Source: a virus (taxonomy: Duplodnaviria > Heunggongvirae > Uroviricota > Caudoviricetes). From it: a stretch of 5,814 nucleotides of DNA. This document shows positions 778-5,814 of the stretch, piece after piece; positions within the stretch are counted from its first letter, which is position 1; every line of letters begins with the position of its first letter. Below the pieces are notes generated by a model. That model was given only the letters and a program-made list of their open reading frames with translations. It was not told where the DNA came from and ran no database searches. The translations under genes and the position numbers were made by a program. The stretch is from IMG/VR virus record IMGVR_UViG_3300011888_000053. One strand, given 5' to 3'.

Positions 778-1249
778 GCGAAATTAACTCTCAGGCACTG
801 CGTGAAGCGGCAGAGCAGGCAATGCATGACAACTGGGGATTTGACGCGGACCTTTTCCATGAGCTGGTAACACCATCGATTGTGCTGACACTGNNNNNNN
901 NNNGAACAACGCTCGTTATATCGCAGCTTTCAACCCTGAAGTAGTACAGGCACTACTGGACGAACGGGAAAGAAACCAGCAATACATCAAACGCCGCGAC
1001 CAGGAGAACGAGGATATTGCGCTAGCGGTGGGGAAACTGCGTGTTGAGCTGGAGACAGCAAAAATCAAAACTCAACGAGCAGCGTGAGTAGAAGGTGTTA
1101 TCTCGCATGGAAGTAAGCGTATTGCTGAACTGGAGGCCTGGGTTGAATACACAAGAGCTGCATACGTAAGAGCAAAAGACAAGGGAGATTTGATCAGAGT
1201 TATTACCAGCCAACCAACGGGATTTTACGCTTACGTACCATGTAATTAG
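774..1249 (+). pseudogene. Ea22-like coiled-coil protein gene, interrupted by an assembly gap and an in-frame TGA
   Basis: GTG 774 overlaps the TraR-like stop and encodes VSEINSQALREAAEQAMHDNWGFDADLFHELVTPSIVLTL. After the N-run, frame 2 reads ...LLDERERNQQYIKRRDQENEDIALAVGKLRVELETAKIKTQRAA, then TGA at 1085..1087, then continues in the same frame as VEGVISHGSKRIAELEAWVEYTRAAYVRAKDKGDLIRVITSQPTGFYAYVPCN to TAG 1247..1249 with no new start codon. Resembles the N-terminal region of ead/Ea22-like prophage proteins (from memory). Confidence 0.45.
894..903. other. Assembly gap (10 N)
   Basis: Run of 10 n characters; true length and sequence unknown, so reading frame across it is unreliable. Confidence 0.95.
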
Positions 1250-3172: not shown

Positions 3173-3340
3173 ATGCACTTCCGAGTCACAGGTGAATGGA
3201 ATGGAGAGCCATTCAACAAAGTTATCGAAGCAGAGAACATCAACGACTGCTATGACCACTGGATGCTGTGGGCGCAGATAGCACATGCAGACGTAACCAA
3301 TATTCGAATTGAAGAACTGAAAGAACACCAAGCCGCCTGA
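3173..3340 (+). CDS. Small prophage protein (55 aa, MHFRVTGEWNGEPFNKVIEAENINDCYDHWMLWAQIAHADVTNIRIEELKEHQAA)
   Basis: GGAG 7 nt upstream of ATG 3173; stop TGA 3338..3340. Below the ORF-track size cutoff, so hand-translated. Feels like a conserved small prophage protein but I cannot name it with confidence. Confidence 0.55.
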   Translation: MHFRVTGEWNGEPFNKVIEAENINDCYDHWMLWAQIAHADVTNIRIEELKEHQAA

Positions 3341-3355
3341 TGGCGGTTTTTTATT
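3333..3355 (+). terminator. GC-rich hairpin plus T6 tract overlapping the stop codon of the 55-aa gene (terminator/attenuator)
   Basis: CCGCC (3333..3337), loop TGAT containing the TGA stop, GGCGG (3342..3346), then TTTTTT (3347..3352). Only 14 nt separate the T-tract from the next ATG. Confidence 0.45.
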
Positions 3356-3366
3356 GGAGACAAGAA

Positions 3367-3711
3367 ATGTCAGATTTGGCTATGAAGGTTTTGAAATGGC
3401 AATCGACTGGCGATGTTGGCATCAGTAGCGCAACTCTTGCCTCAATCGCATGTGGACTGAAAAAGAATATCTATGGTCATAGCTTCGGTGCTCCACATGA
3501 CGCAGCCGATTTCCGACGATGCGTTGCACTGGTTGAGCAGATCCCAGAAATCAGAGATTCATTCGACAAGGTTGCAAAGCGCGTTCCGGCATTCAAAGGC
3601 ATCCTCACCGAATGGGATTCCCTCGTTGCTCTGTTGAAGTCTGAAATGAAGATACACGGAAACAAAGCACCAGAGACTTACAGAAGAATTAGCGAGTTAC
3701 GCAAGGACTAA
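3367..3711 (+). CDS. Hypothetical prophage protein (114 aa; alternative start ATG 3340 gives 123 aa)
   Basis: GGAG at 3356..3359, 7 nt upstream of ATG 3367. The ORF track extends it to ATG 3340, which overlaps the upstream stop (TGATG) and would place the hairpin inside the coding region. No family recognised. Confidence 0.6.
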   Translation: MSDLAMKVLKWQSTGDVGISSATLASIACGLKKNIYGHSFGAPHDAADFRRCVALVEQIPEIRDSFDKVAKRVPAFKGILTEWDSLVALLKSEMKIHGNKAPETYRRISELRKD

Positions 3712-3770
3712 CCACAGCCTCACACTCGATGAGGCATTTTCATTTATCAAGATATCCAGACCTACCATCG

Positions 3771-3791
3771 CCGCATCAATGCGGTTTTTTT
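3771..3791 (+). terminator. Rho-independent terminator after the 114-aa gene
   Basis: CCGCA / TGCGG 5-bp stem with TCAA loop, followed by seven T. Confidence 0.6.
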
Positions 3792-3800
3792 ATTGCCTGA

Positions 3801-3818
3801 TTTGCAGGTTCGATTCCC
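3801..3818 (+). other. tRNA T-arm-like fragment (TTTGCAGGTTCGATTCCC) upstream of the excisionase gene
   Basis: Contains GCAGG-TTCGATT-CC, which matches the T-stem/T-loop of tRNA-Arg(CCU) (argW) as I recall it, then diverges. No D-arm or anticodon arm upstream, so not a tRNA gene. Confidence 0.4.
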
Positions 3819-3836
3819 TATTCGGAGATAGCACTC

Positions 3837-4037
3837 ATGCAACACGAACTACAGCCTGATTCACTGGTTGATTTGAAATTCATCATGGCCGATACTGGCT
3901 TCGGTAAAACCTTCATCTATGACCGGATTAAGTCCGGGGACCTGCCTAAAGCCAAAGTTATCCACGGGCGAGCAAGATGGTTATATCGTGACCATTGTGA
4001 ATTCAAAAATAAGCTCTTAAGCCGCGCCAATGGGTAA
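3837..4037 (+). CDS. torI: TorI-like recombination directionality factor / excisionase (AlpA/Xis-family winged helix), 66 aa
   Basis: MQHELQPDSLVDLKFIMADTGFGKTFIYDRIKSGDLPKAKVIHGRARWLYRDHCEFKNKLLSRANG matches my recollection of the 66-aa TorI protein of the KplE1 prophage. GGAG 9 nt upstream of ATG. Sits next to the att-like tRNA fragment, as expected for an RDF. Confidence 0.8.
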   Translation: MQHELQPDSLVDLKFIMADTGFGKTFIYDRIKSGDLPKAKVIHGRARWLYRDHCEFKNKLLSRANG

Positions 4038-4053
4038 AATAGCGGGTAAAATA
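4032..4053 (+). repeat. Tandem direct repeat GGGTAAAATA-GC-GGGTAAAATA spanning the torI stop codon
   Basis: Exact 10-bp unit at 4032..4041 and 4044..4053. Candidate integrase arm-type or RDF binding sites; function is inference. Confidence 0.35.
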
Positions 4054-4110
4054 TTTCTCACATCTAAAAAACATCATTCCAATCAATCCCCTGCCGCGCC
4101 AAGTAGATGT

Positions 4111-4125
4111 CTGCAGGGGACACCA
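4111..4125 (+). other. attR-like core: 15-nt copy of a tRNA-Arg 3' end (CTGCAGGGGACACCA)
   Basis: Matches the acceptor-stem 3' strand plus discriminator and CCA of argW as recalled (…TTCGATTCCTGCAGGGGACACCA). No complete tRNA upstream, so this is a partial duplicate typical of a prophage right junction. Confidence 0.6.
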
Positions 4126-4513
4126 GATACCCTTCAAACGAAATCTACCTTCACCCCGTAAAAGATGGGTTTGGCAGCACACTTGCCTTATATCTACTCA
4201 TTTTTACTGCAACAGGTTGAAATCTCAGCACTGTCAGAAAGCGCTGATGACTAAACAGCCCTGAGCCGGGCGATGTAACCATCACACAGAATCCTGATAG
4301 CGAAATATGGCGTGACTCGATACTTCACTCCGCAATGCATTCCTTGATGAATTCGCAGGACCGTGATACACGGGACAGGTCACTGAATGACGACAATGTC
4401 CTGGAAATCAGCGAACCGCGCATCTGAAGTACATTTGAGCGACTGTACCAGAACATGAATGAGGCGTTTGGATTAGGCGATTATTAGCAGGGCTAAGCAT
4501 TTTACTATTATTA

Positions 4514-4556
4514 TTTTCCGGTTGAGGGATATAGAGCTATCGACAACAACCGGAAA
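4514..4556. other. Long inverted repeat (TTTTCCGGTTG ... CAACCGGAAAA) 10 nt downstream of the cscB stop
   Basis: 11-bp perfect arms around a 21-nt loop that itself contains ATAG-AG-CTAT. No clean U-tract on the cscB transcript side, so only a possible terminator or protein-binding site. Confidence 0.3.
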
Positions 4557-4566
4557 AAGTTTACGT

Positions 4567-5814
4567 CTATATTGCTGAAGGTACAGGCGTTTCCATAACT
4601 ATTTGCTCGCGTTTTTTACTCAAGAAGAAAATGCCAAATAGCAACATCAGGCAGACAATACCCGAAATTGCGAAGAAAACTGTTTGGTAGCCTGCGTGGT
4701 CAAAGAGTATCCCAGTCGGCGTTGAAAGCAGCACAATCCCAAGCGAACTGGCAATTTGAAAACCAATCAGAAAGATCGTCGACGACAGGCGCTTATCAAA
4801 GTTTGCCACGCTGTATTTGAAGACGGATATGACACAAAGTGGAACCTCAATGGCATGTAACAACTTCACTAATGAAATAATCCAGGGGTTAACGAACAGC
4901 GCGCAGGAAAGGATACGCAACGCCATAATCACAACTCCGATAAGTAATGCATTTTTTGGCCCTACCCGATTCACAAAGAAAGGAATAATCGCCATGCACA
5001 GCGCTTCGAGTACCACCTGGAATGAGTTGAGATAACCATACAGGCGCGTTCCTACATCGTGTGATTCGAATAAACCTGAATAAAAGACAGGAAAAAGTTG
5101 TTGATCAAAAATGTTATAGAAAGACCACGTCCCCACAATAAATATGACGAAAACCCAGAAGTTTCGATCCTTGAAAACTGCGATAAAATCCTCTTTTTTT
5201 ACCCCTCCCGCATCTGCCGCTACGCACTGGTGATCCTTATCTTTAAAACGCATGTTGATCATCATAAATACAGCGCCAAATAGCGAGACCAACCAGAAGT
5301 TGATATGGGGACTGATACTAAAAAATATGCCGGCAAAGAACGCGCCAATAGCATAGCCAAAAGATCCCCAGGCGCGCGCTGTTCCATATTCGAAATGAAA
5401 ATTTCGCGCCATTTTTTCGGTGAAGCTATCAAGCAAACCGCATCCCGCCAGATACCCCAAGCCAAAAAATAGCGCCCCCAGAATTAGACCTACAGAAAAA
5501 TTGCTTTGCAGTAACGGTTCATAAACGTAAATCATAAACGGTCCGGTCAAGACCAGGATGAAACTCATACACCAGATGAGCGGTTTCTTCAGACCGAGTT
5601 TATCCTGAACGATGCCGTAGAACATCATAAATAGAATGCTGGTAAACTGGTTGACCGAATAAAGTGTACCTAATTCCGTCCCTGTCAACCCTAGATGTCC
5701 TTTCAGCCAAATAGCGTATAACGACCACCACAGCGACCAGGAAATAAAAAAGAGAAATGAGTAACTGGATGCAAAACGATAGTACGCATTTCTGAATGGA
5801 ATATTCAGTGCCAT
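4567..5814 (-). CDS. cscB: Sucrose:H+ symporter CscB (LacY-family oligosaccharide permease, MFS), 415 aa, complete
   Basis: 415-aa polytopic membrane protein starting MALNIPFRNAYYRFASSYSFLFFISW... that matches my memory of E. coli CscB and the LacY/RafB/CscB family. Start ATG at 5812..5814 (window end), stop TAG at 4567..4569. Confidence 0.88.
   Translation of the reverse strand: MALNIPFRNAYYRFASSYSFLFFISWSLWWSLYAIWLKGHLGLTGTELGTLYSVNQFTSILFMMFYGIVQDKLGLKKPLIWCMSFILVLTGPFMIYVYEPLLQSNFSVGLILGALFFGLGYLAGCGLLDSFTEKMARNFHFEYGTARAWGSFGYAIGAFFAGIFFSISPHINFWLVSLFGAVFMMINMRFKDKDHQCVAADAGGVKKEDFIAVFKDRNFWVFVIFIVGTWSFYNIFDQQLFPVFYSGLFESHDVGTRLYGYLNSFQVVLEALCMAIIPFFVNRVGPKNALLIGVVIMALRILSCALFVNPWIISLVKLLHAIEVPLCVISVFKYSVANFDKRLSSTIFLIGFQIASSLGIVLLSTPTGILFDHAGYQTVFFAISGIVCLMLLFGIFFLSKKREQIVMETPVPSAI

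Follow-up and report, generated by a model that had tools for sequence, protein, structure and literature searches.

The recombination module of KplE1 (CPS-53), Sf6 and HK620 at the tRNA-Arg gene argW comprises the integrase IntS, the recombination directionality factor (RDF, or excisionase) TorI and a 16-nt core, CTGCAGGGGACACCAT, whose copy in attR, the right attachment (att) site of the prophage, is known in K-12 as pawZ. In this module family excision is governed by the amount of RDF, because the integrase is always present at a low level (PMC2951348). The TorI sites in attL have the cores GTTCG, GATCG or GTCCG, TorI represses intS by binding such sites, and the arm-type P' sites share a TAAA motif (PMC2951348). 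An attR of 135 bp, which starts at CTCTTAAGCCGCGCCAATGG in the 3'-terminal part of torI, is functional as a substrate for excisive recombination in vitro (PMC3509656), and repression of CPS-53 excision by Rho has been reported, according to a secondary citation in PMC4632033. The control of RDF synthesis was left open by the earlier work on the module. Here we analysed a stretch of viral DNA that contains the right end of such a prophage (IMG/VR record IMGVR_UViG_3300011888_000053, 5,814 nt; the whole stretch is called the window below), in which two segments identical to adjoining parts of argW lie on either side of torI. The segment downstream of torI (piece 2) is the ordinary attR core of the module, and the segment upstream of torI (piece 1, or the T-arm box) is phage DNA in the leader of the excisionase gene, where comparison of related leaders identified it as a conserved element.

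The window covers the right end of a P22-like prophage that is integrated in argW and has a recombination module of the Sf6/HK620/KplE1 family; bacterial DNA follows. Positions 3770/3781–4125 of the window were 96–97% identical to Sf6, HK620 and relatives, and the closest complete genome, NZ_CP104613, with 99.1% identity over window 3300–4600, contained a P22-like prophage of about 40 kb with the tRNA-Arg gene and intS at its left end and torI at its right end. The xis–attP–int order of the module, by which the RDF gene lies at the right prophage end and int adjoins argW, was seen in NZ_CP104613; the window alone holds only the right end. The gene between the two segments, for which a torI-like excisionase had been proposed in a first-pass annotation of the window, indeed encodes an RDF of the TorI/HkaC type of the KplE1/Sf6/HK620 module, and its homologue is named torI in RefSeq. 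The elements that concern the two segments are the following.

3802..3817, + strand: piece 1, the T-arm box, TTGCAGGTTCGATTCC, identical to argW 46–61 (16/16)
3808..3818, + strand: invariant core of the box, GTTCGATTCCC, the last C of which differs from the tRNA (T)
3824..3827, + strand: Shine-Dalgarno (SD) sequence GGAG of torI, 5 nt after the box, read from the sequence
3837..4037, + strand: torI, RDF (excisionase) gene, 66 aa, product 100% identical to HK620 HkaC and Sf6 gp18
4032..4052, + strand: two direct GGGTAAAAT repeats in the P arm (4032–4040 and 4044–4052), probably IntS arm-type sites; in HK620, the homologous stretch is annotated as an attP repeat
4100..4110, + strand: CAAGTAGATGT, adjoining the core on its left and preceding C4111, with which the core begins; presumed phage-side core-type (C) half-site, from sequence comparison
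4111..4125, + strand: piece 2, the attR core CTGCAGGGGACACCA, identical to argW 61–75 (15/15)

The two pieces together tile argW 46–75 with a 1-nt overlap at C61, and the argW sequence is the same in K-12 (b2348) and in NZ_CP104613. Piece 1 comprises the TT of the variable loop, the 5' strand of the T-stem, the T-loop and the first C of the 3' strand, and the 293 bp between the pieces (3818–4110) hold the SD sequence, torI, both GGGTAAAAT repeats and the sequence just left of the core. The first-pass annotation had placed the two pieces at 3801–3818 and 4111–4125 and had noted that, if joined, they would nearly restore the 3' half of a tRNA-Arg gene, with a torI-like gene in between; these coordinates are essentially correct, the exact spans being 3802–3817 and 4111–4125, and the reading of the pieces as argW sequence agrees with the perfect matches of both. 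A 16-mer like that of piece 1 was expected 0.06 times in shuffles of the window when up to three mismatches were allowed, and it was found once, without a mismatch. ARAGORN detected no tRNA gene in the window, and Rfam gave no tRNA-family match over 3600–4400 even at E ≤ 10; neither a cloverleaf nor a T-arm fold was thus detected, and the 3' strand of the T-stem is missing from piece 1.

Piece 2 is the already known attR core of the KplE1/Sf6/HK620 type, that is, the original 3' end of argW together with its native flank, in agreement with its first identification as an att-derived tRNA-Arg 3' end. The records of Sf6 and HK620 give the same 16-mer as their attP core, the equivalent core in K-12 is annotated as a pseudogene (pawZ) at the right end of CPS-53, and the core also fits the duplication reported for Kapi1 (PMC8787464). 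The core, CTGCAGGGGACACCA(T), is located at the prophage–host junction, adjoins the crossover and is common to attP and attB, as is characteristic of an att direct repeat. Two comparisons that the first-pass annotation had proposed, of attL with attR and of this locus with an empty argW site, were carried out. The sequence shared by attL, taken from NZ_CP104613, and the attR of the window was confined to 4111–4125. For the empty site, an intact argW joined to window 4126–4260 served as the query against 5,426 complete E. coli genomes, with a match defined as at least 80% of the query length; 1,471 of the genomes contained it, and the best matches were 100% identical over all 210 nt. Since intact argW is directly joined to 4126 onward in these genomes, the sequence from 4126 onward is the native flank of argW. 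A 43-aa open reading frame (ORF) at window 4030–4161 (+ strand), a homologue of Sf6 gene 17 and of HK620 hkaB, extends from an overlap with the torI stop codon across the attR core, so that the prophage form has a host-encoded C-terminal part and the protein is altered by integration.

Piece 1 is phage DNA in the RDF leader and is neither an att repeat nor the product of a second integration. The deposited Sf6 and HK620 phage genomes contain it at the same place, about 20 nt 5' of the xis start, which means that it was carried by the phage before integration; moreover, because the attR that functions in vitro starts inside the 3' end of torI, piece 1 lies outside the functional site. The 293 bp that separate it from the core are phage DNA, and attP left of the core consists of AAGTAGATGT, not of a T-arm (the bases directly preceding the core are AAGTAGATGTC in the window and (A/G)TTCGATGTA in many further lineages). 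Comparison of the C site with the argW T-arm revealed a mean identity of 6.1/13 and a best identity of 9/13 over 37 distinct sites/lineages, about 11 lineages retaining TTCGA(T). A contiguous, decayed remnant of the T-loop is thus already present in the att region itself, and piece 1, as a second and separate copy, is not the half that a split fragment would lack. Two explanations raised in the first-pass annotation, that the RDF gene lies inside an enlarged att duplication or that a second integration at argW in this genome left piece 1 as its scar, could appeal to the exact tiling of argW 46–75, to the match running 2 nt into the core in the Serratia and Pantoea lineages, and to leader tails that scored slightly above the shuffle mean against argW 62–75 in 12/12 lineages tested. 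However, this last similarity was not significant (P 0.03–0.4), and the whole leader was accordingly rejected as a degenerate argW 3' half with a second core; the identity among attL, attR, attP and attB did not extend beyond the 15–16-nt core; a fusion of argW 1–61 to the torI leader via piece 1 was present in 0/5,426 genomes; and none of 58 related loci had a tRNA gene upstream of the RDF gene. With the direct joining of argW to 4126 onward in empty sites and the presence of piece 1 in phage genomes, both explanations are left with next to no probability. The first of them is refuted by the very criterion set in the first-pass annotation, namely that identity be limited to 4111–4125.

RDF homologues were gathered from phage records, GTDB genomes and IMG/VR by protein similarity only, and their leaders were compared. 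The exact core GTTCGAT(TCCC) was present in 55 of 89 distinct leaders defined by homology, and about 7 more contained single-base variants of it. The box was found in Sf6, HK620 and K-12, in prophages of Serratia, Citrobacter, Pantoea and Edwardsiella, in tandem duplicate in Erwinia phage Midgardsormr38, and also ahead of RDFs only 39–52% identical to TorI (phiEt88, g341c and Emek). When IMG/VR viral contigs were scanned for the box, an SD sequence and ATG with no protein criterion, only true tRNA genes and leaders of TorI-family RDFs were found among the 80 loci examined. The spacer between the box and GGAG was 5 nt long in 54/59 distinct leaders and occurred in 18 different sequences, and the upstream contexts of the box were of 24 different kinds. 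The box and the RDF gene move together, as a cassette of box, 5-nt spacer, GGAG and ATG that follows many unrelated upstream sequences, and the occurrence of invariant blocks around a spacer that varies in sequence, not in length, speaks for purifying selection on the box and for its physical link to the translation start. On this comparison of leaders, piece 1 is a selectively maintained element of the excisionase 5' leader. That piece 2 is attR and that piece 1 is a conserved leader element borne by the phage, not an att repeat, we regard as very probable.

Two features of the leader collection may be recorded here. In the Salmonella phages g341c and Emek (L009 and L010, 2435–2698), the annotated GTG start of 'gene 19' is located about 60 nt 5' of the ATG aligned with that of TorI (L009 2495), which has a conserved SD sequence, and the annotated ORF includes the box. 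The contigs L017 and L032 come from metagenome-assembled genomes labelled Actinomycetes and Parachlamydiaceae, respectively, and contain enterobacterial TorI modules (85–92% protein identity), which likely reflects contamination or mis-binning.

Outside the invariant core, the extent of the match to argW differed among lineages. The leader of the window has TTGCAGG on the 5' side (16/16), L017-type leaders have cTTcCAGG (15/16), the Serratia lineage has TTcCAGGTTCGATTCCTG (17/18) and Pantoea has GGTTCGATTCCTG, and these lineage-specific flanking matches together cover argW 46–63. Such matches, and the retention of the core across RDF clades as far apart as 39–52% identity to TorI, speak against a coincidental generic T-loop, which the first-pass annotation had considered for piece 1. 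The pattern suggests that the box descended from a longer copy of the argW T-arm whose edges decayed independently. The end of the box probably coincides with the start of the core because both edges were set by the integrase crossover point, and the box may be the fossil of an ancient att-related capture, an event that no present genome documents, rather than of an event in this genome. An argW-type core was used by all relatives whose att site was readable. No T-arm look-alike was found ahead of the RDF gene in L034, the one relative located next to another tRNA, tRNA-Arg(UCU), and alpA of CP4-57, the target of which is ssrA, has no look-alike of the T-arm of its own target; these two cases provide no evidence for a general target-tRNA rule. 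In L034 (2700–3242, Leclercia sp.), a distant RDF homologue is located about 470 nt from the tRNA-Arg(UCU) gene on the opposite strand, with the repeats GTTCAGTTGGTTCAGTTGGTTCAA and TGAACCAACA (x3) in between, and this locus probably represents a related module at a different tRNA, to which its RDF end is adjacent.

As to the function of the box, we tentatively favour a brake on translation as the best guess, although we hold it to be less likely than not. The box would act in the mRNA leader and limit excisionase translation through pairing with the SD sequence. Its pyrimidine half (AUUCC) would pair with the SD sequence and, in most non-E. coli lineages, GGUU would additionally pair with AACC just 5' of AUG; the ribosome-binding site (RBS) would thereby be partly occluded, translation of the excisionase from read-through transcripts would be low, and lysogeny would be stabilised. 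An mRNA brake is preferred because the box is linked to the translation start by its constant distance of 5 nt from the SD sequence and by its conservation together with the SD cassette. Folding of 13 and then of 59 diverse leaders yielded one recurrent minimum-free-energy (MFE) topology, GGUU/AACC plus AUUCC/GGAGAU, in which the SD sequence is occluded, and one clade exhibited a free energy (dG) of −11 to −12 kcal/mol with z ~ −3. The proposed register had 82% of cells paired, compared with at most 62% in slid registers. The upstream element was complementary to the SD sequence, with UUCC/GGAG pairs in 38–41/43 sequences, and leaders with other spacer lengths had register-adjusted partners (GGAGU in phiEt88 and L021; UUCCUG/CAGGAG in Serratia). 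Predicted SD pairing amounted to 0.80 when the leader contained the box, compared with 0.41 in box-less homologous leaders, a comparison weakened by its use of related sequences and of a structure derived from these same sequences.

Several other results weigh against such a brake. No covariation beyond that in shuffles was detected, an absence that is in part expected because the SD partner cannot vary. The RNAalifold consensus contained only a 4-bp UUCC/GGAG helix (−1.3 kcal/mol), and the mean MFE z was −0.6, with only 14% of leaders below −1.64 and the short E. coli-type segment at about +0.6; stability beyond shuffles and compensatory change, the marks of an SD-sequestering hairpin, were thus not observed. 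An extended E. coli-type inverted repeat enclosing the SD sequence and AUG was considered as well and was not significant (z −1.23). Scrambling of the box alone moved the predicted SD pairing just from 0.80 to 0.74; pairing therefore does not explain the exact sequence that is kept, especially GGUUCG. About 30% of lineages have no box, which shows that it is dispensable, and expression or footprint data on the torI leader were not found in the part of the module literature covered. Taken as a whole, the statement that piece 2 is attR, that the box is a phage-borne leader element and that it works through the mRNA is one to which we give a little less than an even chance.

In the box-less leaders L020, L303, L310, L311 and L315, apparent clean deletions lie between CCTGG and C(C/T)GGAG, as in ...ttgcctGGAGATAATGAT-ATG, and after the loss no AAAACC follows GGAGAT. 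A small upstream ORF (VRFPxxR*) was also examined and rejected, as many lineages have no ATG, GTG or TTG in frame and in some the frame opens one codon before the box. The frame GTT-CGA-TTC-CCN (3808–3831 and homologous leaders) reaches a stop (TAA, TGA or TAG) 4–5 nt before the RDF start in 74/80 leaders, and the recurrent box variant CGA to AGA is synonymous in it; the stop of this frame may merely reflect purine-rich SD spacing.

Apart from translation, the box has been, or could be, connected with transcription, and the features upstream of and overlapping it are the following. Homology to Sf6/HK620 starts at about 3770–3781, just 5' of the RDF leader, where a mosaic joint is located.

3717..3745, + strand: intrinsic-terminator-like hairpin with a T-rich tail (stem 3717–3735, tail to 3745), in a segment homologous to the HK022/HK97/434 terminator regions
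3770..3795, + strand: second intrinsic-terminator-like hairpin with a T-run, at the left edge of the conserved Sf6/HK620-type recombination module here
3793..3805, + strand: TTGCCTGATTTGC (TTGC-N5-TTGC), putative cII-binding site, assigned in the HK620 annotation to a predicted 'phage integration' promoter; its end shares 4 nt with the start of piece 1

The depositors of HK620 and Sf6 predicted a cII-activated 'integration' promoter (pI) in this region, and the likeness to a tRNA would then be incidental. The HK620 record has a promoter and a cII site over the homologous stretch, the Sf6 record reads 'pI; possible integrase expression promoter', the genes of the closest complete prophage include one for a CII-family regulator, and the second TTGC is followed after 13 nt by the hexamer TATTCG, as read from the sequence, a spacing equal to that of lambda pRE. 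However, these annotations are sequence-based predictions for which the records give no experimental support, the repeats are spaced by N5 in place of the N6 type at the annotated pRE of HK620 itself, and the N5 pattern occurs 6 times in HK620 by chance. Neither TTGC-N6-TTGC nor a usable −10 was present, a lenient sigma-70 scan of 3650–4200 returning no acceptable −35/−10 pair, and the TTGC repeats were absent from most lineages that keep the box (g341c, phiEt88, Midgardsormr38, Edwardsiella and the L017-type leaders, which have TTCC), which leaves this promoter very unlikely. An operator by which TorI would regulate its own gene appears improbable as well. The box does contain GTTCG, a core of the mapped TorI sites through which TorI is known to repress intS, site I4 of K-12 reads TGGTTCGC compared with AGGTTCGA in the box, and ATTCCC in the box matches the ATTACC/ATTTCC repeats of another RDF clade at 5/6 positions. 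In that clade ('GFTAKYFYSQI'; L298, L301, L305 and phiEt88), however, RTTACC has replaced the P'-arm repeats while the box has stayed as it was, so that, with the reservation of this 5/6 match, the box does not appear to follow RDF specificity. Furthermore, the box is a single site, whereas the mapped TorI sites form cooperative arrays phased at 10 bp, the flanks of the box 8-mer fit the CAGTTCGC consensus poorly, and there is no nearby promoter to repress.

The constancy of the box could also reflect binding by the integrase. As a copy of the 'B' core-type half-site of attB, the box would be bound as DNA by IntS, possibly bridged to the P-arm repeats 230 bp off, and would modulate torI transcription or intasome assembly. 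The box reproduces the stretch of attB that adjoins the crossover on the left, and its end coincides exactly with the core boundary; it is constant across clades like attB, whereas the phage-side C site and the RDF sites vary; its recurrent C-to-A variant (GGTTAGA, in three backgrounds) mirrors the TTCGAT/TTAGAT alternation among C sites; and its tandem duplication in Midgardsormr38 and its invariance without compensatory change, typical of protein sites, are consistent with such a role. We nevertheless consider it unlikely, since the phage C and reversed C' half-sites converge on GRTGTC, which makes the tRNA-type GATTCC a poor integrase site, and the box never drifts toward a better one; the constant 5-nt spacing to the SD sequence despite turnover of the spacer sequence is left unexplained, and the 135-bp attR works in vitro without the box. 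To our knowledge, there is no precedent for an isolated half-site without an overlap region or partner. A further possibility, in which the leader box is a functional mimic of the T-arm of the target tRNA (the bacterial half of attB) sensed by the recombination machinery or by a host factor that reads T-loops, seems rather improbable; it would wire the excision switch to the sequence that the integrase must recognise in the chromosome, and in one version the integrase on the mimic and on the P arm would loop out and silence the excisionase gene in lysogens. Finally, piece 1 could have no function and be a chance or hitch-hiking T-loop-like relic kept by linkage to the RBS. The lineages that lack the box, some through clean deletions, the singleton variants at several box positions within the E. 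coli group, and the fact that neither a structure nor a promoter could be proven are in line with this explanation, but it is highly improbable given the retention of the 11/11 core across clades 39–52% identical to TorI, while the spacer took 18 sequences and the upstream region 24 contexts, and given an exact 16/16 match far beyond chance.

The remaining observations concern the RDF-binding repeats and the rest of the window. In the P' arms, right of the core, these repeats are GTTCG/GTCCG/GATCG in the TorI and g341c clades (L001, L006–L009) and ATTACC/ATTTCC/GTTACC in the 'GFTAKYFYSQI' clade (L298, L301, L305, L307 and L011), and their two-block, 10-bp-phased layout is retained in both; from the sequences compared, the apparent switch of specificity between the clades looks like natural co-evolution of RDF and site. 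At window 894–903, a run of 10 N (assembly gap) lies inside an ORF (774–944). The adjoining minus-strand positions 911–922 match argW 18–29 exactly over 12 nt; this match is of chance size (about 0.04 expected, by our own estimate), is absent from the closest genome and was rejected. Beyond the core, the flank at window 4126–5814 is of the csc (sucrose) type, compared with dsdC in K-12, and consists of the following.

4126..4566, + strand: native bacterial flank 3' of argW (B' side), leading to cscB, continuous with intact argW in 1,471/5,426 complete E. coli genomes
4567..5814, − strand: cscB, 415 aa, csc sucrose-type major facilitator superfamily (MFS) transporter, annotated as an oligosaccharide MFS transporter

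As far as found, the T-arm box is apparently undescribed in the literature, save as a predicted promoter in databases, and a full-text literature search for its motif returned, among the matches listed, only unrelated tRNA sequences. In phages of at least six genera of enterobacteria, the box lies 5 nt before the RBS of the RDF gene, and because control of excision in this module rests on RDF expression, an element at this RBS is a sensible and easily tested candidate for a regulator. A perfect 16-nt match to a tRNA near a prophage end can also mislead callers of att sites and prophage boundaries; the true boundary is given by the 15-nt core only. If the box were a mimic of the attB half-site, directionality control would be coupled to target recognition in a new way; if it amounts to no more than a weak anti-SD strand, as in the translational brake that we tentatively favour, it would be an ordinary brake of unusual ancestry. 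From the leaders compared, it may be described as a neat conserved oddity in a well-studied module, with its function unproven.

Compared with the known SD-sequestering leader hairpins, the torI leader likewise has a pyrimidine stretch a few nt 5' of GGAG that would pair with it, and a loop constant in length and variable in sequence, and its SD sequence is predicted to be more occluded than in box-less homologous leaders; in contrast to such hairpins, the E. coli-type clade has a short, weak helix, compensatory changes and a known trigger for its opening are lacking, and the upstream strand is a verbatim tRNA T-loop. The separation of Int and Xis in lambda, by pI in xis and sib retroregulation, answers the same regulatory problem of keeping the RDF low while Int is made, in the same int–xis–att neighbourhood, and the pI annotation by the HK620 depositors follows this analogy; however, the module here has attP between xis and int and lacks both an RNase III-type structure and a canonical cII site or promoter. 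The window resembles the KplE1/Sf6/HK620 module in its RDF protein, its core, its P-arm repeats, the sequence of about 3781–4125 and the xis–attP–int order (PMC2951348, PMC3509656), and the T-arm box ahead of the RDF gene likewise belongs to the module. Compared with KplE1 of K-12, the att site itself shows no difference, and the bacterial flank is csc-type instead of dsdC, as a result of which the attL/attR repeat is 15 nt, not 16. Among the tRNA 3'-end fragments known from the borders of prophages and islands, piece 2 is exactly such a fragment and piece 1 is the adjoining part of the same tRNA; unlike those fragments, piece 1 is situated within the phage, 293 bp from the border, occurs in the unintegrated genome, does not arise by duplication on integration and keeps a fixed distance to a start codon.

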